NCBI GenBank assembly: GCA_964016885.1
Contig: OZ024745.1
Location: 31,744,001-31,808,000 of the forward strand
Direction of reading: 5' to 3'
DNA: 64,000 nt
From: Eledone cirrhosa
Lineage: Eukaryota
Under the pieces are notes generated by a model. That model worked only from the letters and a program-made list of their open reading frames with translations, ran no database searches and was not told where the DNA came from. A program made the translations under genes and the position numbers. This document shows positions 4,075 to 57,369 of this stretch, one piece after another; positions within the stretch are counted from its first letter, which is position 1; every line of letters starts with the position of its first letter.

Positions 4075-4450
4075 AGATATTGTTGACAATTAGTCCTTTA
4101 CCTTAGATTTATTTAAATGTCCTTAATTTTCGAGATAATATCTCTTCTTCGGAGGGAAGTAAAGCGGTTAAACCAGTGTTCTAAATAGCTTGCCAAGTCA
4201 TGCTGACAGGAAATGGTATAGAGTATCTGTTCTATCTCTAATGTCAAAGAGCTTCCTGTCAGCATGACTTGGCAAGCTATTTAGAACACTGGTTTAACTG
4301 CTTTACTTCCCTCCGAAGAAGAGATATTATCTCAAAAATTAAGGTCATTTAAATAAATCTAAGGTAAAAGACTAATTGTCAACAATATCTAGAAGAAAAT
4401 TAAGAGGCTAATAAAATAAAATATTTTATTAGCCTCTTAATTTTCTTCTA
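4075..4450. repeat. Two adjacent fold-back inverted repeats (~138-bp arms 4075-4212/4253-4390; 29-bp arms 4390-4450)
   Basis: Arms are near-perfect reverse complements, e.g. GCTTGCCAAGTCATGCTGACAGGAA / TTCCTGTCAGCATGACTTGGCAAGC. Confidence 0.92.
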
Positions 4451-4737
4451 GTCTAATAGGTTTATTGGAGCCTGTAAGCTTTATGCACTCATTGAGGGAT
4501 TTTCTAAGGTGCTTCTACGGGACCCCAAGTCTTTTAGTTTAATGTTGATGTGTAAATTATATATTTTTGTCTAATTTTTAAACTTCAATCCCTGACCCCG
4601 ACAACTAATATAAAAGAGCCCCCCTTAGAATATTGACCCCAACTATACAAGCGGAGTTGCTGATGTATACAACAATTTCAAACTGCTAGCCTTGAGTGAT
4701 ACGTTGATGTAAACAATGATCTTGCAATCACGTTATA

Positions 4738-4784
4738 TGCCTTGATAAGTCCCACCATGGGGTCGGACGAAACGGCTGTCGGCA
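4738..4784 (+). ncRNA. Type I hammerhead ribozyme motif, U3-A8 core variant
   Basis: TGCC-TTGATAA-GTCC..GGAC-GAA-ACGGCTGT-C-GGCA followed by AATAAA. Stems I, II and III all pair, with a GUC cleavage triplet. Confidence 0.75.
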
Positions 4785-4995
4785 ATAAACTTGTTATAAT
4801 GTCATAATAGTTCCTTTGTTCTTTTTCACTAATATTTCTGCTCTGCGTATACGCATAGAGCTTAACTAGCTACTGTCACATATTTGGTAAGTCAGACGTG
4901 ATCATCGCGATTCACATACGACCTACCATACATCTTACATATATATATATATATACTTATATATATACATACATATATATATATATATACTTATA

Positions 4996-5445
4996 TCACT
5001 GGACCGAGACCTTTGGCGGTACTCAGTAACAGAGAAGACCCGCCTTACCTAAATATATAGTAAAACCTACTCCAGCCAGTAGGCATCTCTAACAAAATAC
5101 ACCCCGTCCCACCACCCCCACCCGATCCACACCACCCCGTTCTATGTAAAGTTATGTTGGTGCCGCGCCATCGAGGCCGAAACAAATGAGATCGTGTAGG
5201 TGTCACGACAAAAAAACACACAGTCCACGCTGTAATGTGGCCGTGTAGGCAACACGGTAAAAACCTCCCAGACCCACACTGTAAATGTGGTTGGTGTTAG
5301 GAAGGGCATCCAACTGTAGAAAACCTGCCAGACAGTCCTATGCGAGCAAGACAATCACTCTTGCCTCAAGTGGGACTACCCCCGTCCAAACCCATGCAAG
5401 CGTGGAACACGGACGTTAAACGTTGATGATGATGATGATGATGAT
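4996..5445 (+). mobile_element. RTE LINE 3' end fragment
   Basis: Matches 11605-12043 and ends in (GAT)n followed by (TA)n. Confidence 0.92.
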
Positions 5446-5591
5446 ATATATATATACTTATATATATACATACATATATATATATACACATATATATATA
5501 TATATACTTATATATATACATACATATATACATATATACATATACATATATATATATACACGTATATATATATATATATATACTTATATAT

Positions 5592-6640
5592 ATGGTGGCT
5601 GCCAACTCGTTTTCGAGTACAGCCACTACTTTATATCCATGTAGGTGAACCCCTAGCGATGCGCTGAACGAGTGTGACTTTTTAGTCCAGCCAGCGACAT
5701 GAAAACTCTGGTACAAACACTACACTTGTGACAATTATTGACACATAGTGCTGGGCCCATGGTACCATGTGACGACAAGTGCAGAGAGATCTCCAGATAT
5801 AAATACATACATACATACATACATGCATACATGGTGGCTGCCAACTCATTTTCAAGTACGGCCACTACTTTATATCCATATAGGAGAACCCCTACCGATG
5901 CGCTGAACGAGTGTGACTTTTTAGTCCAGCCAGCGACTTGAATACTCTGGTACAAACACTACACTTGTGACAATTATTGACACATAGTGCTGGGCCCATG
6001 GTACCATGTGACGACAAGAGCAGAGAGATCTCCAGATATAAAGCAATGCCTGTGCCGTGAAGCTTTTATAGTGAGAAAAGGCACTGCACAGAGCCAGTCC
6101 CACTCTCTTAACCAAGATGATATTTACCAAAAACAAGAACAAGTCAACATCATTGGATACCATCAGAGTTGCAGGTGTTATATATATGGTGGCTGCCAAC
6201 TCGTTTTCGAGTACGGCCACTACTTTATATCCATGTAGGAGAACCCCTACCGAAGCGCTGCATGAGTGTGACTTTTTAGTCCAGCCAGCGACTTGAAAAC
6301 TCTGGTACAAACACTACACTTGTGACAATTATTGACACATAGTGCTGGGCCCATGGTACCATGTGAGGACAAGTGCAGAGAGATCTCCAGATATAAAGCA
6401 ATGCCTGTGCCGTGAAGCTTTTATAGTGAGCAAAGGCACTGCACAAAGCCAGTCCCACTCTCTTAACCAAGATGATATTTACCAAAAAGAAGAACAAGTC
6501 AACATCATTGGATACCATCAAGGTTGCAGGTGTTATATCAGAGTTTTCCTTCTCCTAGAATTCTGCCTTGACAAAGGCTAAGGGGTCATCTCTCCCGGTG
6601 ATTTTGGATGGCCATTGACTCTTAAGAGCTCCTTTGCCCT
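5592..6640 (-). mobile_element. Three head-to-tail 5'-truncated copies of the 1193-1833 element
   Basis: ATGGTGGCTGCCAACTC starts at ~5592, ~5831 and ~6186. Copies are ~210, ~350 and ~455 bp, separated by short TA/TACA. Confidence 0.85.
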
Positions 6641-6663
6641 ACATACATATATACATACATATA

Positions 6664-6695
<32 letters not shown>

Positions 6696-6701
6696 CATAT
6701 A

Positions 6702-6733
<32 letters not shown>

Positions 6734-6965
6734 CATACATATATACATATATATATATACATACATATATACATACATATATATATATACATATATATAT
6801 ATACATACATATATATATATACATATATATATATACATATATATATATACATACATATATATACATATATATATATACATATATATATATACATACATAT
6901 ATATACATATATATATATACATATATATATATACATACATATATATACATATATATATATACATA

Positions 6966-7034
<69 letters not shown>

Positions 7035-7206
7035 ACATATATATACATATATATATATACATATATATACATATATATATATACATATATATACATACAT
7101 ATATATACATATACATATATATACATATACATATATATACATACATATATATACATATACATATATATACATACATATATATACATATACATATATATAC
7201 ATATAC

Positions 7207-7260
<54 letters not shown>

Positions 7261-7400
7261 ACATATATATACATACATATATATATATATATACATATAT
7301 ATATACATACATATATATATATATATACATATATATATACATATATATATATATATACATATATATATACATATATATATACATATATATATACATATAT
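6641..7400. repeat. (TA)n/(TACA)n microsatellite
   Basis: Low-complexity TA repeats. Confidence 0.97.
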
Positions 7401-9958
7401 ATCATCATCATGATTATCCTCGTTTAACGTGTACTTTCCACGCTAGCATGGGTTAGACGGGAGTTGTCCCACTTGGGGCAAGGTTGGTCGGGTGACCGTG
7501 TCTCGCTCATATAGGACTATCTGGCAGGTTTTCTACGGCTGGATGCCCTTCCTAACACCAACCACATTTACAGTGTGGAACTGGGAACTTTTTACTGTGC
7601 TACCTACACAGCCACATTACAGCGTGGACTATGTGTTTTTTTTCTCGTGACACCTACACGATCTCAATCTCATCTCATTTATTTGGACTGGATGTTGTGG
7701 TACCAAGTTTATAGTTGGTGTTGGTGGGAGGATAGGGTAAGGGTAGTGGATTGGTGTGTATATTTGGTTAAGAGGTGCCTACTGACTGTAGGTTTCGCTT
7801 TGTACATAGGCAAGGCGGGTCTTCTGTATTACTGCGTAGCGCCAAAGATCTCGGTCCAGTGACATTGTCTTAGAGAGGTGCAAGTGTGTAAGGTCGGAAT
7901 TTATCAGATCGTCCCAGGTTTTTCTGGGTCTACCTACTCCGTAACTACCATCAATTTTGATCACCCTGCACTTTTTTATACAGCTGTCGTCTTTCATGCG
8001 CATCACGTGGCCATACCAACATAGTCTTCTCTCGAGTAAACAGCATCTGATCGCTCTTATTCCTAATTTCTCACTTAGTTCATTTATGCTTTTCCGTTCA
8101 CGTATATTACTATTACACATCCAACGGAGCATGCATGCTTCGTTCCTTTCCAGTCTATGCAGATCCTCTGCACGCAATGCCCATGTCTCACTGCCATGTA
8201 GCATTGCTGTTCGTATACAGGTATCATACAATCTGCCTTTCATTTTTAGAGAGAAACCGGTATAAGCTCTCTGAACTTTTTCCATCCCGTTCTGACTGGC
8301 TACTGTACTTTCAGAGCACCCTCCACCACTGCTGATTTTGTCACCCAGGTAACGGAAAGTGTCTACTATTTCTATAGAACCATCTGGGCAATAGAAGGGG
8401 CTAGTATCCTGTGGACACTTGTTACTTATCGCACCTGACCATCGGCCACATATAAAGTCTACGTTCTTAGATAGTTTACCTGTGATCCCACTACATCTTT
8501 TATGTACCCATACTTTGCATTTGGGACATAAAATTGAATTTCTGCCTACTCCTTTCCTACACACTGAGCAAGGCCATTTCTCGGAGGGTACCTGTGCCTT
8601 ATTTTCCTTTCTACAAACTAGGACTTTAGTCTTAGACAAGTTAACTTTAAGGCCTTTTGATTCTAGGCCATGCTTCCATGTTTGGAATTTCTTTTCTAGT
8701 TCAGCCATTGATTCAGCTATGAGCGTTAGATCCTCTGCGTATAGGAGTTCCCATGGGCAGCCGGTCTTGAACTCCTCTGTTATAGCCTGAAGGGCAATAA
8801 TAAATAGGAGGGGGCTAAGGACAGAGCCTTGGTGAACAACTTTTACACTAAATTCTTCACAATATTCATTGTTAATTCTAACCTTACTGACTGTTTCATT
8901 ATACATAGCTTGTATAGCTCTCACAAGCCATTCATCTACACCTAGTTTTTTAAGAGCCCACCAGATAATGGAGCGGGGGGACTCTGTCAAAGGCTTTTTC
9001 CAGATCTACAAAAGCTAAGTAGAGGGGTTTACTTTTAGCTAGGTATTCTCTTGTAGTTGTCGTACAAGGAAAAGAGCGTCTGTGGTACTTTTACCTGACA
9101 CAAACCCAAACTGCATTTCATCTAGATCAATTCGCTCTCTGATTAGTTGTGCTATAACTCTTTCTGTGACCTTCATGACCTGGTCAATTAACTTAATGCC
9201 TCTATAGTTTCCTCTATCTAGAGCATCTCCTTTACCCTTGTAGCAGTTAATGATGATGCTGCTACGCCAGTCTTTTGGTATGACCCCATTCTGTATTACT
9301 TGGTTAACTATACGGGTGACCATAGTATGTCCCACCATTCCAGATGTCCTCAACATCTCAGCAACTATCTCCGAAGGCCCAGCTGCTTTGCCTGTCTTCA
9401 TATCTTTGATTGCCTTACTTATTATACTACCTTTAACTTGCACCGCTGGTCCTTCTATTGGATCGATTTGGAGCAGACTATCTTTTTCCCACTTATTCTC
9501 CTCATTTAATAGTCTCTCGTAGTGACACTTCCAGTCTATCTTCTTATCAGCATCAGTGAGTGCAAGTACACGGTTATCATTACGTACACACTTCTCTCCG
9601 ACAATATCACGGTTTTCCTTGACACATTGTCTAGCAATCCTGAACACCTCGCGTTTTTGGTCTCCTAGCTACTTGATAGTGCTCTCTACTTCCCCCATCC
9701 TGCCAAACTTTCCAAGCCTGCTTTTTGGCCTTGATTGTCTCTTCTACCTTACTGTTCTACCACCAAGTTACTCTCCTCCTGCCAATAGGTCAGCTCCAGC
9801 CACAGATTTCATCCGTTGCTTTCAGCAGGTTTACTTTCAAGATTTGCCACTGTTCCTCTATGTCGCACGTCTCTAATTGCTCTTCCTTATTGCCAAAGGC
9901 ATCAAGTAATAAGCTTTTAAATTTGTCACTGGCTATGGGGTCCTTCAATTTCTTTCTA
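7401..9958 (-). mobile_element. RTE-clade LINE, degenerate (frameshifted RT, YADD changed to YAED)
   Basis: ORFs 9039-9647 (GNYRGIKL, QFGF) and 7779-8990 (QGSVLSPLLF, LLYAEDL) plus a 3' UTR and (GAT)n tail. More diverged from the other copies. Confidence 0.93.
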
Positions 9959-10194
9959 TATATATATATATATATATATACATACATATATACATATACA
10001 TATAAGGCTGGAACAGGTAAAAGAGTATATATACATATACACCTATATATATATATATTAGAAAGTTAGGTTTTTTTTACAAAATGAAAAATAACCGAGG
10101 TGTCCTACACAAGTAAAAGTATAAAGAAAAAAAGATGAAATCGAAAATGCAACTGGAGTCTTATTTTTTAAAAAAATATACTTATTTATTTGGT

Positions 10195-10235
10195 TCCTTT
10201 ACCGGTTTCGCAGTTCTTCTGCTTTTCAACAGTAG
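10195..10235 (-). ncRNA. Degenerate hammerhead motif (U3-A8 core, stem I poor)
   Basis: Minus strand reads TTGAAAA-GCAG-AAGAA-CTGC-GAA-ACCGGT-A with a palindromic stem III. No good stem I is visible. Confidence 0.45.
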
Positions 10236-10280
10236 AGTTGAGATGGAGGGTCTGTGGTTTTTCTCGCATCTCTCTCTCTC

Positions 10281-12043
10281 TGTCACGGAAAAAGTAATAG
10301 CGCAACTAATCAGAGAGTGAATTGATCTAGATGAAATGCAGTTCGGGTTTGTGTCAGGAAAAAGTACCACAGACGCTCTTTTCATTGTACGACAACTACA
10401 GGAGAAGTACCTAGCTAAAAGTAAACCCCTATACTTAGCTTTCGTCGACTTGGAGAAGGCCTTTGACAGAGTCCCCCGTTCCATTATTTGGTGGGCTCTT
10501 AGAAAACTAGGTGTCGATGAATGGCTTGTACAAGCCATGTATAAAGAAACAGTCAGCAAGGTTAGAATTAACAACGAATATAGTGAAGAGTTTAGTGTAA
10601 AAGTTGGTGTTCATCAGGGCTCTGTTCTTAGCCCCCTACTATTTATTATTGCCCTCCAGGCTATAACAGTGGAGTTCAAGACCGGCTGCCCATGGGAACT
10701 CCTATACGCAGATGATCTAACGCTCATAGCTGAATCAATGGCCGAGCTAGAGAAGAAATTCCAAACATGGAAGCACGGGCTAGAATCAAAAGGCCTTAAA
10801 ATTAACCTGGCTAAGACTAAAGTTCTAGTTTGTAAGAAAGAAAATAAGGCGGCGGTCCCCTCCGGGAAGTGGCCATGCCCAGAGTGTAGGAAAGGCGTAG
10901 GTAGAAATTCCATTTTGTGTCCCAAATGCAAAGTTTGGGTTCATAAAAGATGTAGTGGGATCACAGGTAAGCTAACTAAGAACATAGATTTTACATGTGG
11001 CCGGTGTTCTGGGGCAATAAGTAGCAGCAAGTGCCCACAAAATACTAGCTCTTTCAACTGCGCAGAGGGTTCTATAGAAATAGTGGACAGCTTCCGTTAC
11101 CTGGGTGACAAAATCAGCAGTGGGGGAGGGTGCTCTGAAAGTACAGTAGCTAGAGTCAGAACTGGGTGGAAAAAGTTGAGAGAGCTTATACCACTATTAG
11201 CCGCTAAAGGGTTCTCCCTAAAAATGAAAGGCAGGTTTTACGATGCCTGCATACGAACAACAATGTTGCATGGCAGTGAGACCTGGGCATTGTGTGCAGA
11301 GGATATACGCAGACTAGAGAGAAACGAAGCTTGCATGCTCCGCTGGATGTGTAATAGTAATATACGTGAACAACAAAGCATAAACGAACTAAGGAAAAAA
11401 TTAGAAATAAGAGGGATCAGATGTTGTTTACTCGAGAGAAGGCTACGTTGGTATGGTCACGTGATGCGCATGAAGGACGATAGCTGTATAACAAAGTGCA
11501 GGGCAATAAAGATAGACGGTAGCCACGGAATAGGCAGACCCAGAAAAACCTGGGACGAGCTGATAAACTCCGACCTCACACACTTACACCTCACCAAGAC
11601 AATGTCACTGGACCGAGACCTTTGGCGGTACTCAGTAATAGAGAAGACCCGCCTTACCTAAATACAAAGTAAAACCTACTACAGTCAGTAGGCATCTCTA
11701 ACAAAATACACCCCCGTCCCACCACCCCCACCCCATCCACACCGCCCCCCCTTCTATGTAAAGTTATGTTGGTGCCACACCATCCAGGCCGAAACAAATG
11801 AGATCGTGTAGGTGTCACGACAAAAAAACACACAGTCCACGCTGTAATGTGGCCGTGTAGGCAACACGGTAAAAACCTCCCAGACCCACACTGTAAATGT
11901 GGTTGGTGTTAGGAAGGGCATCCAACTGTAGAAAACCTGCCAGACAGTCCTATGCGAGCAAGACAATCACTCTTGCCTCAAGTGGGAAAACCCCCGTCCA
12001 AACCCATGCAAGCGTGGAACACGGACGTTAAACGATGATGATG
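10281..12043 (+). mobile_element. RTE-clade LINE, 5'-truncated
   Basis: RT ORF, ~380-nt 3' UTR and (GAT)n tail. Confidence 0.95.
10336..11661 (+). CDS. Partial RTE reverse transcriptase with an inserted Cys/His (PHD-like) finger
   Basis: Motifs DLEKAFD, QGSVLSP, YADD and YLG. CPEC..C..C..WVH..C..C..C lies between YADD and YLG. Confidence 0.88.
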   Translation: MQFGFVSGKSTTDALFIVRQLQEKYLAKSKPLYLAFVDLEKAFDRVPRSIIWWALRKLGVDEWLVQAMYKETVSKVRINNEYSEEFSVKVGVHQGSVLSPLLFIIALQAITVEFKTGCPWELLYADDLTLIAESMAELEKKFQTWKHGLESKGLKINLAKTKVLVCKKENKAAVPSGKWPCPECRKGVGRNSILCPKCKVWVHKRCSGITGKLTKNIDFTCGRCSGAISSSKCPQNTSSFNCAEGSIEIVDSFRYLGDKISSGGGCSESTVARVRTGWKKLRELIPLLAAKGFSLKMKGRFYDACIRTTMLHGSETWALCAEDIRRLERNEACMLRWMCNSNIREQQSINELRKKLEIRGIRCCLLERRLRWYGHVMRMKDDSCITKCRAIKIDGSHGIGRPRKTWDELINSDLTHLHLTKTMSLDRDLWRYSVIEKTRLT

Positions 12044-12302
12044 ACGGAAAAAATGAAACAAAATTTCATTTTTCACTCTTAGTACGGCTGTTACTTAAAT
12101 ATATGTATACGTACATACATATATGTATACAGACGCACAGTAGTATGTATATATATACATACATGCACACATATATATATGTACGTATGGATTCGCCGAA
12201 CATTTATTATAATGCTCGGTGTGCTTGTAAACAAACATCCCGAATTAAGCCGTACAGTGTCTAGCAACCATCGTTGCCCTTTTGTTCAACACTGACAAAG
12301 GA

Positions 12303-12345
12303 ACGATGTACTAGTTTCAAGCTTATTAGCTATCGTCAGCACCGT
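12303..12345 (-). ncRNA. Minimal type I hammerhead ribozyme motif
   Basis: Minus strand: ACGGTG-CTGACGA-TAGCT.AATA.AGCTT-GAA-ACTAGT-A-CATCGT. Confidence 0.8.
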
Positions 12346-12630
12346 ATACCTTCCTGCCAGATGATTGAACGTCTGAAAGTATATACTTTCCTTATGCATA
12401 TTAACGGCTGAGCAGCCTAATTTGCATATGTATGTACGTATACATATTTATATTTAAGTAACAGCCGTACTAAGAGTGAGAAATGAAATTTCGTTTCATT
12501 TTTTCCGTTTATAGTTTTCGGTGCGCCCGGCTGATTAACTCACTTGATATGCAAATTAGGCTGCTCAGCCGTTAATATGCATAAGGAAAGTATATACTTT
12601 CAGACGTTCAATCATCTGGCAGGAAGGTAT

Positions 12631-12673
12631 ACGGTGCTGATGATAGCTAATAAGCTTGAAACTAGTACATCGT
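12631..12673 (+). ncRNA. Minimal type I hammerhead ribozyme motif
   Basis: ACGGTG-CTGATGA-TAGCT.AATA.AGCTT-GAA-ACTAGT-A-CATCGT, with palindromic stem III. Confidence 0.82.
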
Positions 12674-12791
12674 TCCTTTGTCAGTGTTGAACAAAAGAGC
12701 AACGATGGTTGCTAAACACTGTACGGCTTAATTCGGGATGTTTGTTTACAAACACACCGAACATTATAATAAATGTTCGGTGAATCCATAC

Positions 12792-12842
<51 letters not shown>

Positions 12843-13109
12843 TGCATGTATGTATATACATACTACTGTACGTCTGTATACATATATGTATGTACGTATA
12901 CATACTTATATATATATATATACATATAGATAAGAAACAAAGCAAGAATAAGATTTAATAATGTCATTTTGATTTGTTACATTACAAAAAATGTTTTCCA
13001 ATTTTTCATGCATTACATTTTACATTGAGTAATATTGAAATGCAGAGTTTTTCTCCATAAATTATATCACTGATTTAAAATCAATCATCATTTTCTTACA
13101 AAAACAAAA

Positions 13110-13145
13110 TGGGTGAAATGCAGCAAGGCGCGGGTAATTTGGCTA

Positions 13146-13148: not shown

Positions 13149-13186
<38 letters not shown>

Positions 13187-15597: not shown

Positions 15598-15612
15598 CTA
15601 TATATATATATA

Positions 15613-15810
15613 TAGGAAAATGTATGACCCCGACGGCAGAGCTCAAGCCGTTTCAACGGCTATTTTTGGAGTCTAGAAATAGCTGTCAAAACGGCTTGAG
15701 CTCTGCCGTTGGGGTCATACATTTTCCTATTATCCACTCTACTACCCTAAGTATTGAGTACTCTGGTGCGTTATGGTCCATCTGGTTCCTTACCACAACT
15801 CCTTCGTTAT
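15613..15810. repeat. Short element with terminal fold-back; second copy at 28850-28990
   Basis: TAGGAAAATGTATGACCCCGACGGCAGAGCTCAAGCCGTTT...AAACGGCTTGAGCTCTGCCGTTGGGGTCATACATTTTCCTA, flanked by TA. Confidence 0.8.
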
Positions 15811-16427
15811 ATATACAAATATTAATAAAATAGATGTTCTTTTGATCAATTACATTTTATTATACATATTTCGGATGTACAACAGTAGATCCTCATCAGA
15901 CAAAATATAATGATACATGACATACCCTGAGATGTTAAATGGTTAAGATTTAATCAAGGTAGTGATTAACATAAGAGAAAGTTTAACATTTATACCCTAA
16001 TAATGAGAAAATTCGAAAACGTAATAAATTCAATAGAGAATGTGTGAGTAGGAAAAACGTTGCTTAATGTAACAGTTATAGAGATTTTAAAATGTATGAT
16101 ACTACAATTTATCTGGGAAAACAGTCAATGAGAGCCGCTGGGATAGGATATATAGAGAGGGAAAGATAAGGGGTAATATATGGAGAAGGAGATTTTCCGA
16201 AAGTTAAACGGTTAAGTTTGAAAATATTTAATTTATGCTATTTTAGGGTGAAGAATCAAGATTTTAGATTTTTTTTTTAAATTGCTGGTTATTATATTTA
16301 TTAGTTTTGTAAATTCTATAAGTGTTTTAACATTTCTAAACTGATGAGGACGTACTGTTGTACATCCAAAATATGTATAATAAAATGTAATTGATCAAAA
16401 GAACATCTATTTTATTAATATTTGTAT
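15810..16427. repeat. Inverted repeat (~90-bp arms) carrying hammerhead motifs
   Basis: 15810-15899 is the reverse complement of 16341-16427. Confidence 0.85.
15853..15907 (-). ncRNA. Type I hammerhead ribozyme motif
   Basis: Minus strand: TATTTTGT-CTGATGA-GGAT..ATCC-GAA-ATATGTAT-A-ATAAAATG, with an 8-bp stem I. The partner at ~16341 has GAAA changed to AAAA. Confidence 0.78.
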
Positions 16428-16525
16428 TTTAATATTAATAACTCTGGAAAATTCTTTACCACAGAGTGCTTCCAATCTACTGTAAAACTCATTCTTTGAT
16501 ATACTCATTGAATCTTATTTAACTC

Positions 16526-16577
<52 letters not shown>

Positions 16578-16635: not shown

Positions 16636-16968
16636 TATACTTTGGGAGGGTCATGCTGCCAATTAAACACACCCACCTGTGGATTTTCACTTCAATTTAT
16701 TACGAATCTCCAGTTGGTTGGTTTAATAACCGGATAGTTGTTTATTTATTGTCAAAACTCTTTCGTCACATTCTGTGACCTCCTCAGTGAATAATTTATT
16801 TTGTGTCTTTCCTATGTTCTGTCCCACAGAATGTGTGACGAAAGAGCTTTGACAATAAATAAATAACCATCTGGTTACTAAACCAATCAACCGAAATTTG
16901 TAATAAATTGAAGTGAAAACCAACAGGTGCGTGTGTTTTTATTGGCAGCATGACCCTCCCAAGGTATA
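16636..16968. repeat. Diverged inverted repeat (~140-bp arms)
   Basis: GGGAGGGTCATGCTGCCAAT...ATTGGCAGCATGACCCTCCC. Confidence 0.88.
16746..16794 (-). ncRNA. Hammerhead ribozyme motif (one extra nucleotide after the core)
   Basis: Minus strand: TTATTCA-CTGAGGA-G-GTCAC.AGAAT.GTGAC-GAA-AGAGTT-T-TGACAATAA. Confidence 0.6.
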
Positions 16969-19994: not shown

Positions 19995-21050
19995 GAAGAA
20001 TCGACCCCAGTACGTGATTGGTACTTGGTTTGTTGACTTCGAATCGATGAAAGACAATGTTGAAAAGTGGGATTTTAATTCAGAAAGCAAATGCCGCAAA
20101 GTATTCTATCCGACGTTCAAACGACTCTGTCAATTTTCTGTCCGTCAGTACTTTACTGGTACATTATTTCCTTGACACTGGCAAGATGAAAAGCAAAATT
20201 GACTTCGGCGGGATTTGAACTCAGAACGTAGAAAGGCGTGACTAAATACTACAAAGCATTTTATCCAACGCCCTACCAATACTGCCAACCCACTTTCCCT
20301 TTTCCCAAATTGGCAGAATCAGTAGAGTGTCAGACACCATGCTTTACAGTATAGAGTTATGGCCCTTTACGTTCTGAGTTCAAATCCCACCGAGGTTAAC
20401 TTTGCCTTTCATCCTTATGGGGTTGATAAAATAAAGTACCAGTAATACACTGAGATAATTTCTGGCCTTGAGCCAAAAGTAGAAACAATTATTTAAGAAA
20501 TGTTTGCCGACCATGTCATTTTTCAGCGCAGTGACAATAACATGACATGGCCTATTCGATAGTGCTTTGCACTATCAAAGCTACAGCCCTTTACCTTTTG
20601 AGTTCAAATCTCGCTGAAGTCAACTTTGCCTTTTATGTTTCCGGGGTTGACAGTATAAAATATAAGTCAAGTACTAGGGTTAATGTAACTGATGTTCCCC
20701 CATCCCTCAAATTTGTGGCTTCATGCCTAAATTCAAAAATCAATATTTTATATTTGCTAAATTTGTATCCTTTAAAAACCATCAGAGTTTCCATGCCAGA
20801 TACTTCATACTATTATTTTGCTATGCGTTGCTGCTTGTAGTTTCTTATTCTTAGTCCTTACCTATACATAAATATTGATTTCTATTTCAGACACAGCTCC
20901 AGTAAATTTGTGGTGAAGAACAAAGTTGATTAAATCAACCCCAGTACTTGACTGTTAGTTGACCTCAGTGGGTTTTGAAATCAGAATGTAAAGAACCAGA
21001 ACAAACACTCCAATGACATTTTATACGACACTCTACCAATTCTGCCAATA
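19995..21050. mobile_element. Cluster of tRNA-derived SINEs with Nin-like central domain, both orientations
   Basis: Repeated CTGAGTTCAAATCCC..CGAGGT.AACTTTGCCTTTCATCC...GGGG.TGATAAA motif, e.g. 20309-20492 (+), 20150-20290 (-), 20570-20750 (+). Confidence 0.8.
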
Positions 21051-23159: not shown

Positions 23160-23382
23160 ACAACTTTGGTACGCTTTCATCAGATAAAATACAAAGTGTG
23201 TTTTATAAATAGAGATAAACCCATGAAAATCATACCTTATCAGTTAGAAATTCACTGGATAGTGAATTAGTGAATTCACTATCCAGTGAATTTCTAACCG
23301 ATAAGGTATGATGTTCATGGGTTTATCTCTATTTATACAACAAACTTTGTATTTTATCTGATGAAAGCATACCAATGTTGTC
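23160..23382. repeat. Near-spacerless fold-back inverted repeat (~110-bp arms)
   Basis: Centre ~23270: AGAAATTCACTGGATAGTGAATT / AATTCACTATCCAGTGAATTTCT. Confidence 0.9.
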
Positions 23383-23414
23383 TTGATTGCCCTTGAAATA
23401 TATATAATAAAATA
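23350..23414 (+). ncRNA. Type I hammerhead ribozyme motif
   Basis: TATTTTAT-CTGATGA-AAG..CTT-GAA-ATATATAT-A-ATAAAATA, with a perfect 8-bp stem I and palindromic stem III. Confidence 0.75.
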
Positions 23415-23575
23415 AATATGGTTTTATAAATATAGTTTCCATTTATTTAATATCTTTGACTATTTACTCCAGTTACTGTTGAGTGCTCTAAATCAGTTAT
23501 AAACATTTATGTTTGTCGGACTTCCAACAAATTAAATACAACTTCTACTTATATATATATATATATATATATATA

Positions 23576-23992
23576 TTTAAGAGTGAAAAATGAAATTTTG
23601 TTTCATTCTTTTCTATTTATCGTTTTCGGTTGCCTAGCCGACTAACTCACTCGATATGCAAATTAGGCTGCTCAGTCGTTAATATGCATAAGGAAAGTAC
23701 ATACTTTCAAACATTCAATAATCTGACAGAAAGGTATACGATGCTGACGATAGCTAATAAGCTTGAAACTAGTACATCGTTCCTGTGTCAGTGTTGAACA
23801 AAAGGGCGACGATGGTTGCTGAGCACTGTATGGCATAATTCGGGCTGTTTGTTTACAAACACGCCGAGCATTATAATAAATGTTCGGTAAACCCATACCT
23901 ACATATATATGTGTGTGCATGTATGTATATATATATATATATACATACTACTGTACGTCTGTACACATATATGTATGTACGTATACATACTT
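23576..23992 (+). mobile_element. Third copy of the hammerhead-bearing monomer (HHR 23738-23780)
   Basis: Homologous to 12470-12907. HHR reads ACGATG-CTGACGA-...-GAA-ACTAGT-A-CATCGT with fully Watson-Crick stem I. Confidence 0.82.
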
Positions 23993-24048
23993 ATATATAT
24001 ATATATATGTAGGTATGTTTTGAAACAGTGAGCAGGTTTGAAATTAGA

Positions 24049-24883: not shown

Positions 24884-27800
24884 ACAGTGACTCTCAACCA
24901 GTGTGCCACGAAATTTTGAACGGCACACTAAGAAAATGCGAAAGTAAGTTCATAGCTGTGTGTTTCTTTATTTAGTTTGAGTAATTCTATGTGTCTATGA
25001 CTAGTCTGTGTCTACGGTTGTATGCTGTCTATGACTAGTCTGTGTCTATGACTAGTCTGTGTCTACGGTTGTATGCTGTCTATGACTAGTCTGTGTCTAC
25101 GGTTGTATGCTGTCTATGACTAGTCTGTGTCTACGGTTGTATGCTGTCTATGACTAGTCTGTGTCTACGGTTGTATGCCGTCTATGACTAGTCTGTGTCT
25201 ATGACTAGTCTGTGTCTACGGTTGTATGCCGTCTATGACTAGTCTGTGTCTATGACTAGTCTGTGTCTACGGTTGTATGCTGTCTATGACTAGTCTGTGT
25301 CTACGGTTGTATGCTGTCTATGACTAGTCTATGTCTACGGTTATATGCTGTCTATGACTAGTCTGTGTCTACGGTTGTATGCTGTCTATGACTAGTCTGT
25401 GTCTACGGTTGTATGCTGTCTATGACTAGTCTGGGTCTACGGTTGTATGCTGTCTATGACTAGTCTGTGTCTACGGTTGTATGCCGTCTATGACTAGTCT
25501 GTGTCTATGACTAGTCTGTGTCTACGGTTGTATGCCGTCTATGACTAGTCTGTGTCTATGACTAGTCTGTGTCTATGACTAGTCTGTGTCTACGGTTGTA
25601 TGCTGTCTATGACTAGTCTGTGTCTATGACTAGTCTGTGTCTACGGTTGTATGCTGTCTATGACTAGTCTGTGTCTATGACTAGTCTGTGTCTATGGTCG
25701 TATGCCGTCTATGACTAGTCTGTGTCTATGACTAGTCTGTGTCTATGACTAGTCTGTGTCTACGGTTGTATGCTGTCTATGACTAGTCTGTGTCTATGAC
25801 TAGTCTGTGTCTACGGTTGTATGCTGTCTATGACTAGTCTGTGTCTACGGTTGTATGCTGTCTATGACTAGTCTGTGTCTATGACTAGTCTATGTCTACG
25901 GTTGTATGCTGTCTATGACTAGTCTGTGTCTACGGTTGTATGCTGTCTATGACTAGTCTGTGTCTACGGTTGTATGCTGTCTATGACTAGTCTATGTCTA
26001 CGGTTGTATGCTGTCTATGACTAGTCTGTGTCTACGGTTGTATGCTGTCTATGACTAGTCTGTGTCTACGGTTGTATGCTGTCTATGACTAGTCTGTGTC
26101 TACGGTTGTATGCTGTCTATGACTAGTCTGTGTCTACGGTTGTATGCTGTCTATGACTAGTCTGTGTCTATGACTAGTCTATGTCTACGGTTGTATGCTG
26201 TCTATGACTAGTCTGTGTCTACGGTTGTATGCTGTCTATGACTAGTCTATGTCTACGGTTGTATGCTGTCTATGACTAGTCTGTGTCTACGGTTGTATGC
26301 TGTCTATGACTAGTCTGTGTCTACGGTTGTATGCTGTCTATGACTAGTCTGTGTCTACGGTTGTATGCTGTCTATGACTAGTCTATGTCTACGGTTGTAT
26401 GCTGTCTATGACTAGTCTGTGTCTACGGTTGTATGCTGTCTATGACTAGTCTGTGTCTACGGTTATATGCTGTCTATGACTAGTCTGTGTCTACGGTTGT
26501 ATGCTGTCTATGACTAGTCTATGTCTACGGTTGTATGCTGTCTATGACTAGTCTGTGTCTACGGTTGTATGCTGTCTATGACTAGTCCGTGTCTACGGTT
26601 GTATGCTGTCTATGACTAGTCTGTGTCTACGGTTGTATGCTGTCTATGACTAGTCTGTGTCTATGACTAGTCTATGTCTACGGTTGTATGCTGTCTATGA
26701 CTAGTCTGTGTCTACGGTTGTATGCTGTCTATGACTAGTCTGTGTCTACGGTTGTATGCTGTCTATGACTAGTCTGTGTCTACGGTTATATGCTGTCTAT
26801 GACTAGTCTGTGTCTACGGTTGTATGCTGTCTATGACTAGTCTGTGTCTACGGTTGTATGCTGTCTATGACTAGTCTGTGTCTACGGTTGTATGCTGTCT
26901 ATGACTAGTCTGTGTCTATGACTAGTCTGTGTCTACGGTTGTATGCTGTCTATGACTAGTCTGTGTCTATGACTAGTCTATGTCTACGGTTGTATGCTGT
27001 CTATGACTAGTCTGTGTCTATGACTAGTCTGTGTCTATGGTTGTATGCTGTCTATGACTAGTCTGTGTCTATGACTAGTCTGTGTCTACAGTTGTATGCT
27101 GTCTATGACTAGTCTGTGTCTACGGTTGTATGCTGTCTATGACTAGTCTGTGTCTATGACTAGTCTGTGTCTACGGTTGTATGCTGTCTATGACTAGTCT
27201 GTGTCTATGACTAGTCTGTGTCTACGGTTGTATGCTGTCTATGACTTGTCTGTGTCTATGACTAGTCTGTGTCTACGGTTGTATGCTGTCTATGACTAGT
27301 CTGTGTCTATGACTAGTCTATGTCTACGGTTGTATGCTGTCTATGACTAGTCTGTGTCTATGACTAGTCTGTGTCTACGGTTGTATGCTGTCTATGACTA
27401 GTCTGTGTCTACGGTTGTATGCTGTCTAAGACTAGTCTGTGTCTATGACTAGTCTGTGTCTATGGTTGTATGCTGTCTATGACTAGTCTGTGTCTATGAC
27501 TAGTCTGTGTCTACGGTTGTATGCTGTCTATGACTAGTCTGTGTCTATGACTAGTCTGTGTCTACGGTTGTATGCCGTCTATGACTAGTCTGTGTCTACG
27601 GTTGTATGCTGTCTATGACTAGTCTGTGTCTATGACTAGTCTGTGTCTACGGTTGTATGCCGTCTATGACTAGTCTGTGTCTACGGTTGTATGCTGTCTA
27701 TGACTAGTCTGTGTCTACGGTTGTATGCTGTCTATGACTAGTCTGTGTCTACGGTTGTATGCTGTCTATGACTAGTCTGTGTCTACGGTTGTATGCCGTC

Positions 27801-31179: not shown

Positions 31180-31550
31180 AATTAAAGCTTTCGCTCCAAT
31201 ATAACTGTATACATATAAGTATGTGAATTTCGTATATATCTGACGATATGCGGTACATACAAATGAGGCTAATCAGCCGATTTACATAGGTGAAAAAATA
31301 TAATTTTTTCGCCTGTTTCAAATTCCAGTGGAGAGCAGGGGAAGCACTGTCCTGTTGATGGTCAGAGCCAGAAACGCGTTGGCAAGTGTCCCCTGCTACT
31401 TCTGCTAGACAGCGCTGGCGGTCAGCTTTTCAATACTCATAGCTTGAAGGCTTTCCAAATGTTTATTCGTAAAGATACCGCATGTCATTAGCTATACGAA
31501 ATTCACATACTTATATGTATACAGCAATGTCGGAGTGAAAACTCTAATTC
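31180..31550. repeat. Diverged inverted repeat enclosing a hammerhead relic (31345-31388, +)
   Basis: Arms CTGTATACACATAAGTATGTGAATTTCGTATA / TATACGAAATTCACATACTTATATGTATACAG. Inside: CACTGTC-CTGTTGA-TGG..CCA-GAA-ACGCGT-T-GGCAAGTG (A6 changed to U). Confidence 0.7.
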
Positions 31551-36067: not shown

Positions 36068-36247
36068 AGATGTTGGTTTCAAATACTAAATTCTATCAGA
36101 TAAATTTGACAGAATAACTCTCATGAAACCAGGAGTAACATCAAAGTAAAACCAGAACAGTTCAACATGATGATACCATAATTTTAATATTCCACAAATG
36201 TAACACTGTATGACAACATCAGGCATACAGTTGACTAGAATGTGGTA
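36068..36247 (-). ncRNA. Intronic H/ACA snoRNA, U19/SNORA74/snR191-like (copy B1)
   Basis: Two pocketed hairpins plus an extra middle segment, H box ATATTA and ACA-tct. Pockets AGTCA/GTTAC and GAGAGT/TAGT are complementary to LSU H69 GUAAC(U)AUGACU and ACUA(U)GACUCUC. Confidence 0.82.
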
Positions 36248-38650: not shown

Positions 38651-38830
38651 AGATGTTGGTTTCAAATACTAAATTCTATCAGATAAATTTGACAGAATAA
38701 CTCTCATGAAACCAGGAGTAACATCAAAGTAAAACCAGAACAGTTCAACATGATGATACCATAGTTTTAATATTCCACAAATGTAACACTGTATGACAAC
38801 ATCAGACATACAGTTGACTAGAATGTGGCA
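38651..38830 (-). ncRNA. Intronic H/ACA snoRNA, U19/SNORA74-like (copy B2)
   Basis: Near-identical to 36068-36247. Confidence 0.8.
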
Positions 38831-44361: not shown

Positions 44362-46867
44362 TTAACCTCTTCGTTACCAAACCGGCCAAAGCCGATCGAA
44401 AAAAAATTTTGGTTCATGTGACCAAGCCGTCCAAAACCGCCCGTACTCACACATTCATATTTAAATGAGAATATCAGAGCAAATCTCATTAATACATTCG
44501 TGAAAACACGTGATTATACTGCGTAAACAATTGAGCTACAGTTTTGGACAACGATCGACGCGTTATTTTAATTCTGTGAATTTTGGGAGATTTTTTTCCA
44601 AATTTGTTCCTGTTAGGTTTTGAAAATTTGTAATTCTGACAAAAAATGGATACCAATTTCATTGTCAAGCAGTGAGTCAGAATTCGAAGGATTTCTTCTG
44701 AAGATCTTGAAAAATCTAACTCTAACTGAAAAAAAAAAAAGCACGTGGTATTTGATAATGAATCCGATGTTTCATTTTCCGAAAGTGAAAACTGAATCCA
44801 AGAGCTCCGATGACAGCGATAAAGAAAATGAATTGGCACCTGAATGGAGTAAAAATTTAAAAACTGTTTCTTTCAGTGATTTTTGTGAAGAAACTGGACC
44901 AAGTCACAGTCTATCCCAGGAGAGCAAAGCTTTAGACTATTTCCTTTTACTTTTTCCTATGAGCTTGTTTGAAATCATTACGGCGGAAACAAACTGTTAC
45001 GTTGAAAGTAAACAAAGCGAAAAAAAAGGATAGTTTGTGGTTTCCCACAAGCTTAAATGAAATTAGAGCTTATTTTGCCATAAATATTATTATGGGCATT
45101 AGAAAGCTACCCAGAATTACAAATTACTGGAGTAGCGATGAACCCTTTGGAGACGAATATGTCTCAAGTATAATGACGAGGACACGGTTTTTAAAATTGA
45201 CGCAATATTTACATGTAAGAGACACGAGCAGTACACCAGTACGTGGAGAACCAAACTATGATCCCTTATTTAAAATAAGACCCCTCATTGACTGTGTTCA
45301 AAACACATATTTATCTATCGATGAGGGTATGGTGGGCTATAAAGGCCGAGTGCATTTTCGACAATATATGCCAGGAAAGCCCACAAAATGGGGGATCAAA
45401 GTTTGGAAGATTTGCGAATCGAATACTGCTCTGGATTTGAATTTTATACTGGCAAAAGAGACAATTATGGCCTAGGGTATGATGTGGTTTGGAATTTATC
45501 ACTTCCATACCATAACCAGGGCCGTATATTATCTTTTTACCGGTTTTTCAGTTCGGTCAAACTTGTGGAGAATTTAGATACTGTGGCAACACATACATGT
45601 GCTACAGTGATCGCTAATAGAAAAGGACTGCCGTTGGATATAAAAAAAAAAAAAAAAAAAAAAAAAGTGAATCCTACAGCAGAAAGGAAATTTGCTAGTG
45701 ACCACATACAGAGATAGGAGGCAGATCAATTTTCTGTCTACCTGTGCACGGCCACATGTGGATGAAAATGGCACCCCATTTGTGAATCTCGATTATAATA
45801 GGTACATGGGTGGTGTAGATCGGATGAATCAGATGATGTCTTATTATCCAGTTGGCAGACCGGAGAATAAATGGTGGCGATACCTGGTTTGGTATATAGT
45901 AAATATGAGTATTACTAATGCGTTTATACTATATACCAAATCAGGACCGGCTCGAAAGCGATGCGACCATCTGCAGTTCCAAGCAGATATAGCAACACGA
46001 TTAAGAGCTGGTTATTCCTAAAAAAAAAAATAACTGTAGGGAGAAAAAACAAAGCCTGCCAGAGGGATATCCCTCTGAATTCAGCTGATCTCCATAAATT
46101 AGAAAAAAAAAATATCGAAGGTCGCAAATGCCTTCATCAAAAAAGGAAAGCTCCTAGTGGAAGGTCCGTTGAAACAACTTTCCAATGTGCATTCTGCAAG
46201 GTTGCATTATGTAGAGCAGGGTGCTTTACAAGTTTTCATGATAGGAATATTGTTTGATTTGTGTGATTTGATTTTCTTAATATTTTCAGAATTACTTCGT
46301 TTTTCTTTTTCTTTATGTGTAATTTTAATTTACCTGTAAGGTGAGTGACGAGTTTTGATTAATTTCTTTTGTAAATCATTATTGTATATTTCTGCGTATC
46401 TATGTATGTGGAAGAGCTTATTTAATCTAGTTGATGGTATGTGTATTTTGTTTTCTAGTTTTCTTCAGACAAATTCCACTCTTTCGTTTTATTTATACCT
46501 TTATGATACACCTGTCTTTTGTGTGTTTAAATTCACCTGATAAATCCAGTAATGTGCACAACTCTTCTATAGTAAAATTTTGTTGTATACCCAATTGAAT
46601 ATTAGCTAATAACCCATTTTCTATAGCTATGTTTGAACAAAATTTAAATAATTTCATATTTTGTTGAATTTACCTGTATTTACCTGTAATTAGAGTCACT
46701 TTGAGACAAAAATTATGGAATAGAATTGGTTGAGGACCTTTCGTTAAATTTTCTTCCAAAAATCACATTAATATGTTGATAAATAAAAAATTTATGATTA
46801 TATTAGAAATTAATTGAAACACATAAGGGGTGTATTTTGGTTAGAAATATGGTAACGAAAGGGTTAA
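44362..46867 (+). mobile_element. Near full-length piggyBac (PGBD4-like) transposon with inactivated transposase
   Basis: TTAA TSDs and TIRs CCTCTTCGTTACCA / TGGTAACGAAAGGG. Motifs SIDEGMV..KGR..QYMP.KP.KWGIK and YNRYMGGVD, plus a Cys-rich C-terminus. Several frameshifts. Confidence 0.94.
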
Positions 46868-48147: not shown

Positions 48148-48194
<47 letters not shown>

Positions 48195-50992: not shown

Positions 50993-51146
50993 CTTGGGAA
51001 TCCACAATTAATTTATCCATTCCTCGGGGCCCAAGAGTAGTACGAACAGCATCTGCCACAACTTGACAGGCCATGATGTTACTAAGGATTTGGGGCTTCC
51101 CTTGAGAGGAATCCGTGCCCTCCTTTAATAAAATGATTGGTGTTTG
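50993..51146 (-). CDS. CCT7: CCT7 exon 2
   Basis: [51 protein letters not shown]. Confidence 0.97.
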
Positions 51147-51634: not shown

Positions 51635-51802
51635 CCATATTTCCCGGCGTCAAAGACGCTACTGTTTTTATAAAATAAGTCTCAAAAATCCACCATGCGT
51701 CCTGGAGGCTGAAGGTTAACTATTTTTTTCCAAATTTTTTAGTTGTCAAAATTAGGGTGCGTCCTCGAGGACGAAGTGTCTTCGACGCCGAGAAATACAG
51801 TA
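51635..51802. mobile_element. Tc1/mariner/pogo-type MITE
   Basis: TA|CCATATTTCCCGGCGTCAAAGAC ... GTCTTCGACGCCGAGAAATACAG|TA. Confidence 0.7.
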
Positions 51803-54786: not shown

Positions 54787-54789
54787 CAT
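54787..54789 (-). CDS. CCT7: CCT7 exon 1 coding part (ATG only)
   Basis: ATG|GTAAGA donor in phase 0 with exon 2. It completes a 1620-nt ORF and lies just downstream of promoter-like motifs. Confidence 0.75.
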
Positions 54790-54874
54790 ATTTGTTAACT
54801 ATCAGTAAATTGCCGGCTTATCTGTAAAATTAACAAAATGGATTCGGTAGTGATCATGGGAGAGTATTCATACT

Positions 54875-54900
54875 AGCTTCCGGTGCAACTACTTCCGTTG
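54875..54900 (-). promoter_or_regulatory. Putative CCT7 proximal promoter with tandem ETS-like motifs
   Basis: Minus strand ACGGAAGT..CCGGAAGC about 90-110 bp upstream of the ATG. Confidence 0.5.
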
Positions 54901-55051
54901 TAAGTATCACCATGACTACAGGGTTTGTTATTTCGGCCATGAACTCTGGGCTGTTTTCATTTCCTTCGAACATTTTATTAAAAAAAATTGTTTACATTTT
55001 ATTAAAAGGTGATGGCTGTTTTTCTATTCGGTATCATTATGATAGCGATGA

Positions 55052-55580
55052 TAACGGTGGATTGGCAGTATCGGTAGAGAGTCGGACGCCATGCTTTCCA
55101 GCATAGTTACGTCCCTTTACGGTCTGAGTTCAAATCCCACCGAGGTTCACTTTGCCTTTCATCCTTACGGGGTCAATAAAATAAAGTACCAGTAATGTAC
55201 TGGGTAATTGCTAGCCTTGTGCCAAAAGTAGAAACAATTATGATAGCGATGATTGATTATTCTTTCTCATATTTTTATTGTGCTCTTACACACACACCAT
55301 ATACATACCTTTTTAATGTACTTTCTCGTTACCTTCCTAGTGGAACATTGTTGTATTATTCTGACTGTGAATAGGGCGGTGGATTGGCAGAATCGGTAGA
55401 GTGTCAGACACCATGCTTTGTAGCATAGAGTTACAGCCCTTTGCGGTCTGAGTTCACATCGCGCTGAGGTTAGCTTTGCCTTTCATCCTTACGAAGTCGA
55501 TAAAATAAAGTAGAAATAATGCACTAGGGTTGATTTAATTGACTTTCCCCTCCCCCGACATCGCTGGCCTTGTGCCTATA
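55052..55580 (+). mobile_element. Two tRNA-derived SINEs (55052-55250; 55375-55580)
   Basis: Same family as 40781. The first is flanked by the duplicated ATTATGATAGCGATGAT. Confidence 0.85.
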
Positions 55581-56924
55581 TTATTCTGACTATAAATACA
55601 AAGAAGGGTAAATTTATAGAATGATACCCGCTGGGGTTCGCTAAGAAATGTTCGTGTTTTCAACTAATCTGACCTCCGACATGCTCTAAATCTACTTTTT
55701 TTCAAAAACGAATTGAGAAGGAACCCAGCCTCGTAGTTTTCTTCGGTAGAATTTTTTTTTTCTAGGTTTTTTTCGTTTGTTTTCAAGCGATCTAACATCC
55801 GACTCACTCGCAAACGACACCTATTTCTGAAAACGGAGGCAGGGAGAGAGGGGGACCCTCGCAGTCACAGATAAGCATCTCTCAGCAGTTTAAACTTATA
55901 GAAGAGTACCCGCTAAGAAAATTTTTTTCTCCTAGATTTTATCGTGTTTTCAACTCATTTAACCTCCGACATGTTCACAGTCGATTTTTTAAATGAGGAA
56001 GGGAGACTACTCCATGTAAGAGTTGTTTCCATTAAGTGCGCGTGTATTTAGTGGGTTGTCAAGTATGGAATTTGTAGAGATTTGTAAAAGAAAAACAAAT
56101 TTTTACAAATTTCATACTTGATCCAATATATATATAACTTTGATAGGTTTCGGCCATGTCTAACTTAATAGTACCATCTGGCGAAGTCTTTCAAATCATG
56201 ATTCGGACACCATGGCCATCAAGTAGAGAGTTATTTTTTACGGAAACATATCCGTGTGGAAGAGGTTTAACCGGGATTTCTTGGAGGAATTTGTCTAAAG
56301 ACTTTTTGAATTTTATGGGATTTGTTTCTGATTTTATGTGTTTTGATGTGATGGACCAGTTGAGGTGAAAGAATTGGTCCGTAATGTTGTGAACACTCTG
56401 CTATCCAAGATCCCAGATGAACCCACAGCATGGAATGAAGGTAAACCTAAGGGCAGCAACAACGAACTCCCTCCTAAATCAATGGCCATCCAACGCAAGC
56501 TGGATATAGAAAGTGAAGCAAAAATGGCTGAAGCAGGTAAAGGAGTAAACTGACATAGATCTTAGAGCATAAGGCGAAATGCATTGCAGTATTTCCCCTT
56601 ACGCTTTCAGTTCACATCCTACCAAGATGAATTTTACCTCACATCATTTCGGGTACGATTAAATCAAGTACTAGTCCATGATGGTGAGCTGGTAGAAATG
56701 TTAAGCATTAAAAGAGATGCCTTGTGGTATATTGGTTTCCATATGTTTATGGTGGGGCCGATAATGTTGTTGGAACTCAATGTGGTCTTAATGAAATGGT
56801 TTCAGCGGGATTAGGCGGTGAGTGCTATAGTTTTTGTGGTAGGTGCTTATCGCGTAAGGTTTCTTCGAATAATCAACTCAAGTTACAGAGTCCTTTTTAT
56901 ATATAGGTGTGTGTGTGTGTTGAT

Positions 56925-57369
56925 CAATGAAAATAAAACAAAAGTCGGAGATAAGTAGTTAATTAGTTCATTGTTTTACGATCGTTTCGGGGGTTTGATT
57001 GATCATGGTAGATTGATATATCAACTATCAAGTAATGGTAACGTCACCACCTGTTTCTTGTCGCGAAATCTTTGATCAATCTCACCGCCTTCTTCAGAAA
57101 CGATTTCTGAGGAAGTGTAAATTTATAGAAAGACACCCGCTAGGGTTCGCTAAGAAACTTTTTTTCTATGTTTTTTCGTGAGTTTTCAGAAACCATTTCT
57201 GAGAAAGACGGTGAGATTGACCAGAGATTTCGAGACTAGAAACGAGTAACGAAGTAAGAACTACCTGCTGTCAATATATCGATCTACCATGATCAATCAA
57301 CCTTCTGAAACGGTCGTAAAACTAAGAACAAATTAACCAACTATCTCCGACTTATATTTTATTTTCATT
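56925..57369. repeat. Diverged inverted repeat (~185-bp arms) with long-stem-II hammerhead motifs
   Basis: 56925-57110 versus 57186-57369. Minus 56973-57101 reads GTTT-CTGAAGA-[~100 nt closed by GATTGATCA/TGATCAATC]-GAA-ACGATCGT-A-AAAC. Confidence 0.75.

Follow-up and report, generated by a model that had tools for sequence, protein, structure and literature searches.

The window analysed here is a stretch of 64,000 nucleotides (nt) of the Eledone cirrhosa genome (contig OZ024745.1, positions 31,744,001 to 31,808,000, forward strand), a genome of 3.0 Gb with 37% GC that is rich in (TA)n. It contains eleven hammerhead ribozyme motifs listed in an earlier note and one that we add. We describe these motifs and their relation to Penelope-like elements (PLEs), whose 3' ends are formed by pseudo-long terminal repeats (pLTRs). 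Families are named A to I, and motifs are labelled by window position (4152, 4742, 10229 and so on). The features are as follows:

4075..4390: family I fold-back (89% inverted self-match), formed by the 3' end of a CCHH-type PLE present twice in head-to-head orientation
4121..4156, minus: family I hammerhead, intact, core CCGAAGA (C instead of U at position 4, U4C), 4-nt stem III AAUU, site UUA
4309-4344, plus: family I partner motif, GAAA changed to AAAA
4389-4451: small 5' hairpin of family C
4398..4939, plus: family C, Hydra-type PLE of which the 3' end is present, running up to a TA tract (4940)
4738..4784, plus: family C hammerhead, intact, U3-A8 core, stem III ACGGCUGU, site GUC, AATAAA past stem I
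10044-10057: TA reached by the family H Neptune-type PLE 3' end, which is nested in a long interspersed element (LINE) of RTE type
10196..10233, minus: family H hammerhead, U3-A8, stem III ACCGGU, site GUA, stem I broken by one base relative to the family
12044..12932: family A insertion, in which a non-coding unit of 430-470 nt with internal (TA)n is present as an inverted pair
12185-12429 and 12547-12791: arms of the family A insertion
12303..12345, minus: family A hammerhead, intact, stem III ACUAGU, site GUA
12631..12673, plus: family A hammerhead, intact
15813..16530: family D insertion, minus-strand Hydra-type PLE 3' end and, from 16341, a truncated copy in inverted orientation; the insertion ends at TA18 (16531)
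15853..15907, minus: family D hammerhead, intact, stem III AUAUGUAU, site AUA
16341..16387, plus: family D dead hammerhead, 5'-truncated (starts at the core), GAAA changed to AAAA
16636..16968: family F fold-back, Neptune-type PLE 3' ends, right arm beginning within stem II
16746..16794, minus: family F hammerhead, weakened (stems I and III weak), stem III AGAGUU, site UUU
23160..23550: family E insertion, plus-strand Hydra-type PLE 3' end, TA tracts on both sides
23160-23264: short inverted copy of family E, only the core retained
23350..23414, plus: family E hammerhead, intact, stem III AUAUAUAU, site AUA
23578-24010: family A copy, beginning at the TA tract that terminates family E
23738..23780, plus: family A hammerhead, intact, without inverted partner
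31180-31255: inverted tail piece of family G
31345..31388, plus: family G hammerhead, decayed, core CUGUUGA (A6U), stem III ACGCGU
56922..57373: family B fold-back
56973..57101, minus: family B hammerhead, 102-nt rod-like stem II, stem III ACGAUCGU, site GUA, one weakened base
57199, plus: family B partner motif, G8A

Two descriptors were applied. The first describes a type I hammerhead with a strict CUGANGA core and yields 7 matches in the window, of which 5 have a palindromic stem III; in 200 block-wise dinucleotide shuffles of the window the mean is 0.04 and the maximum 2. When 3-8 covariants are allowed in the core, the matches increase to 9 (6 palindromic) against shuffle means of 0.68 and 0.05, respectively. 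The second descriptor, with a threshold fixed post hoc after inspection of the window, adds the U4C core and the 4-nt stem III and finds seven intact motifs: 4152-, 4742+, 12339-, 12637+, 15899-, 23358+ and 23744+. Six of these are on the earlier list of eleven and 4152- (4121-4156) is the addition, whereas the five remaining listed motifs (10229-, 16341+, 16787-, 31352+ and 57097-) are damaged but homologous to family members. All eleven fit families of minimal type I hammerheads and their coordinates agree with the motif ends, so that the claim of real hammerheads with type I topology and often palindromic stems III is upheld, at a frequency far above that of dinucleotide-shuffled sequence. 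The earlier note also spoke of many unrelated families; there are indeed many, but the eleven motifs form 8 of them rather than 11, and 4152 brings the total to 9 (A-I). The inverted duplications it described are found in 8 of the 10 window insertions, which have an inverted partner or hairpin (the exceptions are 10229 and 23744).

In Rfam, the window matches no hammerhead family at E values up to 1, and five hammerhead-rich loci match none at gathering scores. Some matches were dropped as probable chance hits with weak stems and without a palindrome: the strict match 57107+ as well as 22294+, 24133+, 31433- and 48045-.

An even sample of 60 evenly spaced 10-kb stretches (600 kb, with 20 shuffles as control) contains 43 intact motifs, located in 20 of the 60 stretches, against a shuffle mean of 0.55. 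Extrapolation gives a likely genome total of about 2.1x10^5 intact motifs (bootstrap 95% interval 1.2-3.2x10^5), and the window, with 7 intact motifs in 64 kb, is ordinary for its own genome. The 43 motifs represent about 25 sequence types, and 8 of them have a stem II longer than 45 nt (46-102 nt). First-look candidate counts per family range from 528 to 2,487 and are lower bounds. A larger set of 279 loci, mostly selected by similarity to the window and obtained after removal of 28 overlapping loci, holds 309 motifs in 66 stem III/stem I types. Several unrelated families combine a ACAAUUGU stem III with stems II of 73-97 nt (L101:8140+, L109:7095-, L144:6683- and L171:1098+).

These numbers bear on a reading in which AT-rich palindromic repeats would match the descriptors by chance, and in which the fold-backs would be DNA foldback transposons or artefacts of the assembly. 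The base composition and TA richness of the genome would favor such a reading, as would the window fold-backs 29236-30023 and 20145-20453, which lack a hammerhead. Nonetheless, it is refuted by the shuffle comparisons and by the linkage to open reading frames (ORFs) shown below, and it also conflicts with a fixed 3' polarity and with fold-back arms that differ by 2-25% and are truncated unequally. We consider its probability negligible.

Six of the nine window families (those of 4152, 4742, 10229, 15899, 16787 and 23358) are the 3' ends (pLTRs) of PLEs with reverse transcriptase (RT) and GIY-YIG ORFs. Assigned by motif, three are of Hydra type (C, D and E), two of Neptune type (F and H), and family I is placed no closer than as a CCHH type. 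The family I copy at 4075-4390 shares 97-98% identity with the sequence that follows a GIY-YIG ORF in L032 and L213, and a same-strand ORF lies upstream in 10 of 30 loci. Its 551-amino-acid frame contains RVT_1 and has homologues with PF00078 (RT), PF26215 and PF01541 (GIY-YIG); CCHH is present with a reduced linker. Position 4 of the core is C in 42 of 45 copies, the query itself having carried C. In family C the hammerhead sits just upstream of the ORF start in 18 of the 20 loci found with an ORF start, and L340 and L341 contain tandem arrays of pLTR, ORF, untranslated region (UTR) and pLTR with a length of 5.3-5.9 kb (the pLTR being derived from partial tandems). The family C protein has a C-terminal GIY-YIG without CCHH, a CxCX5C linker and RWR and DKT motifs, and the same Hydra-type nuclease motifs (no CCHH, CxCX5C linker) recur in D and E. 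Family D matches L315 at 95%, and also L313; of 8 extended loci, 2 have it at a distance of 1.5-1.6 kb beyond an ORF of Hydra type. Family E (23358) matches L223 and L235/L317 at 95% and ends 1.0-1.5 kb beyond such ORFs. Family F (16787) is 87% identical to the 3' UTR of L052, 170-200 nt after a Neptune-type ORF, and for family H, of which 11 of 20 loci were examined, a Neptune-type GIY-YIG lies upstream on the same strand in 6 loci and is inverted in the other 5. Both F and H carry a CX2-5CxxC linker plus CCHH. The nearest named relative of one PLE protein of this genome comes from Octopus bimaculoides (59%).

Because six of nine families continue into RT and GIY-YIG ORFs, the short copies in the window are 5'-truncated ends of autonomous PLEs. 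The expected link between PLE-type minimal hammerheads and RT/GIY-YIG ORFs is thus found for I, C, H, D, E and F, and the description of the population as mostly non-autonomous is not supported. As a separate observation, three independent copies (L315:6117-, L314:6283- and L310:765+) carry on the opposite strand a second hammerhead-like motif (stem III AUAU, 46-52-nt stem II), located about 530 nt upstream from that of family D; it is a candidate for either an old nested insertion or an antisense ribozyme.

No ORF was found linked to the three other families. None was found upstream of family G in 25 loci or upstream of family B in 30 + 14 loci (3 extended), and both families are old, with about 80% identity among copies. 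Family A is a non-coding tandem unit with one hammerhead per unit: the tandem spacing is 423-472 nt, 29 of 40 copies are preceded by their own tail, and a continuous ORF was not found upstream in 30 loci. Its hammerhead has a 6-bp stem I and a 4-bp stem II, lengths that are compatible with the canonical form, and no loop 1 contacts were identified. Only family A (ACTAGT, three motifs) looks like a non-autonomous, retrozyme-like tandem unit of 430-470 nt. It is probably a passenger of the PLE machinery, though an unseen autonomous master is possible. An octamer-like ATGCAAAT at 12549-12556, upstream of a family A hammerhead, is a possible promoter element. Its reverse form is present in the UTR of family E, where in L235 it precedes the cleavage site by about 170 nt.

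The properties of family A support a reading in the sense of the mostly non-autonomous population of the earlier note, in which most of the motifs would belong to independent non-autonomous retrozymes spreading as small circular RNAs. The missing ORF link of B and G points the same way, as does another family in L119 (8630-9683), where a 311-nt unit forms a tandem array with an intact ACGCGU hammerhead in each unit, plus one inverted copy. As a reading of the majority, however, it is refuted by the six families that run into PLE ORFs, and in C, D, E, F and H few copies or none (0-3 each) have a tandem partner within 700 nt. We therefore regard it as improbable.

The boundaries of the copies are asymmetric. 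The 3' ends are fixed and cluster 120-215 nt beyond the cleavage site, whereas the 5' ends are scattered: among 203 truncated bystander copies, 18 start within 12 nt of the cleavage site. Random 60-mers contain a (TA)5 tract in 8.5% of cases; after the 3' end of the copies it is present in 237 of 315 (in 175 of 246 when family A, with its internal tract, is excluded), and before the 5' end in 37 of 186. In the even sample such a tract lies within 350 nt downstream of 34 of the 43 motifs and upstream of 17, compared to a background of 23%, or 43% in the same stretches. The preference for TA noted earlier is thus confirmed, but it is not peculiar to ribozyme elements: RTE LINE 3' ends adjoin (TA)n in 29 of 49 cases, whereas those of a short interspersed element (SINE) do not (14 of 129). 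Head-to-head inverted partners are seen in 112 of 316 copies, in 0 of 50 RTE and in 7 of 129 SINE copies, in line with the inverted pLTR-like partners proposed before. Likewise, the reported downstream AATAAA is enriched, occurring within 25 nt of the site in 16 of the 43 even-sample motifs against 2% in the background.

Taken together, we are highly confident that the motifs are minimal type I hammerheads in the pLTRs of many PLE families, and that the window copies are likely short pieces from target-primed reverse transcription that began at (TA)n and stopped early, often with an inverted second piece. By analogy with PLE biology, the GIY-YIG nuclease would nick TA tracts, after which reverse transcription would begin at the RNA 3' end, halt early and often add the second piece in inverted orientation. 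The template RNA would be uncleaved or religated, since the copies extend through the cleavage site. For cleavage itself, one RNA would have to contain two hammerheads in sense orientation, as in tandem pLTR-ORF-pLTR arrays or tandem family A units, and these would pair via their palindromic stems III. The second motif of a fold-back is antisense and is therefore predicted to sequester the ribozyme rather than to complete it, so that most solo and fold-back copies are likely inert as ribozymes. Predicted folding, on which the dsRNA proposed in the earlier note depends, places 72-94% of the bases of fold-back copies in pairs; if transcribed, such copies are predicted to form, and would contribute, RNA hairpins.

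Structure predictions are compatible with pairing between two motifs. The stem III hairpin is predicted to be unstable (+2.4 to +6.0 kcal/mol), while the self-duplex reaches a predicted -2.2 to -10.0 kcal/mol in 8 of 10 stems. Stem covariation within families, which the earlier note had named as a test, gives a mixed picture. One stem I pair of family A occurs in four forms (GU 23, UG 8, AU 6, CG 1) and one stem II pair of the E group in three (AU 42, GC 7, GU 4; 62 of 63 copies aligned), with 0 of 500 shuffles reaching the score in either case. In independent DNA contigs (four runs) family A varies at the same positions. For the 102-nt stem II of family B a rod-like fold is predicted, with a median z of -2.7 and 86% of cells paired, but here RNAalifold gives no useful consensus and covariation does not exceed the shuffles (300 of 500 reach the score), which would be the pattern expected under neutral decay from one master.

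Whether cleavage matters for the elements is a different question. The hammerheads might be vestigial or attenuated passengers, with PLE retrotransposition in this genome independent of cleavage; this concerns function only and is compatible with an origin in PLE pLTRs. The young, ORF-linked family I fits such a role with its prevailing C at position 4 and its 4-nt stem III, as U4C reduces in vitro activity (though it is sufficient in a viroid, according to the portion of PMC3088659 available). Further support comes from the 5' ends, which do not lie at the cleavage site, from Naiads, which spread without canonical hammerheads (PMC8557442, as far as available), and from the poor in vitro cleavage of minimal hammerheads described in the accessible part of PMC4209133. 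On the other hand, core, three stems and palindrome are retained in about 25 unrelated even-sample types and, overall, in 66 types defined by stem III and stem I. Together with compensated pairs and the covariation of U3-A8, this points to selection on the fold in master copies. We regard the vestigial role as a tentative, rather unlikely possibility.

Several observations weigh against the assignment to PLE ends and truncated reverse transcription, or limit its reach. The majority of the loci were selected through similarity to the window, and the clade names follow the motifs in the available text of PMC8557442 alone, without a tree. Families A, B and G, together 5 of the 11 motifs, show no tie to an ORF in the loci searched. 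At the cleavage site there is no pile-up of 5' ends, with 4 of 203 lying no more than 1 nt away, and the DNA therefore carries no trace of in vivo cleavage. The stem III duplexes of 4152 (AAUU, +2.2) and 16787 (AGAGUU, +1.2) are not stable alone. Finally, the covariation of A and E rests on one or two pairs each, counted over copies rather than events, and that of B does not exceed the shuffles.

Other parts of the window contain further repeats. The fold-back at 29236-30023 is near perfect (790 nt, arms 99%), has no copy in the 279 loci and shows no convincing hammerhead; the fold-backs 20145-20453, 57411-57518 and 57770-58300 likewise lack a convincing hammerhead. An abundant repeat at 15615-15815 and 28847-28991 adjoins (TA)n at its 3' end (36 of 48) and has a hairpin-forming 5' end, without a convincing hammerhead in the part present. 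Another repeat (1194-1674 and 5594-6640) forms partial tandems of 239 and 355 nt near TA tracts in a PLE-like layout, and no hammerhead was found in it. Broken RTE-type LINE copies (RVT_1) in both orientations and a piggyBac-like DDE_Tnp_1_7 fragment occupy 7779-11661, 2567-3231 and 44963-45717, and satellites form two arrays, one with a 34-bp unit (95 copies) at 24990-28215 and one with a 55-bp unit (at least 103 copies) at 58334-64000. Two SNORA74-like matches on the minus strand (36069-36246 and 38652-38829, E 2e-7, below gathering score) are located in a duplicated stretch and may mark the host gene of a small nucleolar RNA.

The biology is known, but the scale in this genome perhaps not. 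The role of PLE hammerheads is called unclear in PMC8557442 (as far as available), and young families with canonical, U3-A8, U4C and long-stem-II cores, together with the intact tandem arrays L340 and L341, provide material on whether these ribozymes must cleave. Octopus genomes are rich in Penelope (PMC13282606, PMC8967140, in the parts available), while the words 'ribozyme' and 'hammerhead' are absent from the main text of the 2026 octopus repeat annotation (PMC13282606), and a literature search for hammerhead/Penelope surveys returned no cephalopod survey. Because Rfam misses the motifs and that main text is silent, short PLE ends may be catalogued as unknown repeats or SINEs. The abundance, the stems II of up to 102 nt and the young family with a U4C core are possibly new, though long-stem-II or U4C variants may already be described in earlier literature, including the supplements of PMC4209133 and PMC8557442. 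More speculatively, the hammerhead repertoire of this genome could rank among the densest and most diverse on record, with some 2x10^5 intact motifs in dozens of families, stems II of at most 102 nt, a young ORF-bearing PLE with U4C and a 4-nt stem III, and family A (about 10^4 copies) as a minimal-hammerhead retrozyme with its own (TA)n that replicates as an RNA circle; as a whole we consider this statement doubtful.

Comparison with known systems is based on the available portions of the papers cited, among which PMC6765202 also counts as known work. For non-LTR retrozymes (Cervera & De la Pena 2020, PMC7229834, with a section title giving up to 120,000 in axolotl; Li, Clavereau & Pollet 2026, 10.64898/2026.07.22.740005) the likeness is confined to family A: a non-coding tandem unit with one type I hammerhead, mostly present as monomers. 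Family A differs by its minimal rather than canonical hammerhead, its internal (TA)n and its frequent inverted pairs. The anatomy of the PLE ends is already described in PMC4209133 and PMC8557442. Craig et al. 2021 (PMC8557442) report inverted 5'-truncated copies, (TA)n targets and the Hydra clade of EN+ (endonuclease-positive) PLEs. Families C, D and E resemble this clade in their C-terminal GIY-YIG without CCHH, CxCX5C linker, hammerhead, (TA)n insertion and tandem and inverted copies, and C also in its RWR and DKT motifs, whereas the family C units are larger (about 5-6 kb, with 3' UTRs of 1-3 kb, against less than 3 kb). F and H resemble Neptune in CX2-5CxxC plus CCHH. An inverted 5'-truncated copy beside the pLTR and a TA bias are shared with Neptune and with Penelope/Poseidon/Nematis, and CCHH with a reduced linker is the likeness seen in I. 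The closest counterpart to the ribozymes themselves is given by the minimal hammerheads in pLTRs of metazoan PLEs (Cervera & De la Pena 2014, PMC4209133), with U3-A8, opposite-strand pairs, mostly truncated PLEs and weak dimer cleavage. Both sets are of type I, with a short stem I, a palindromic stem III, the U3-A8 variant and an unpaired base at the 5' end of stem II, and both consist of many heterogeneous families of mostly single truncated copies with opposite-strand pairs 100-700 bp apart. They differ in number and form: about 2x10^5 motifs are estimated here against 2,000-9,000 per genome there (the descriptors differ), and the stems II of 46-102 nt (8 of 43 sampled) and the U4C master fall outside that description.

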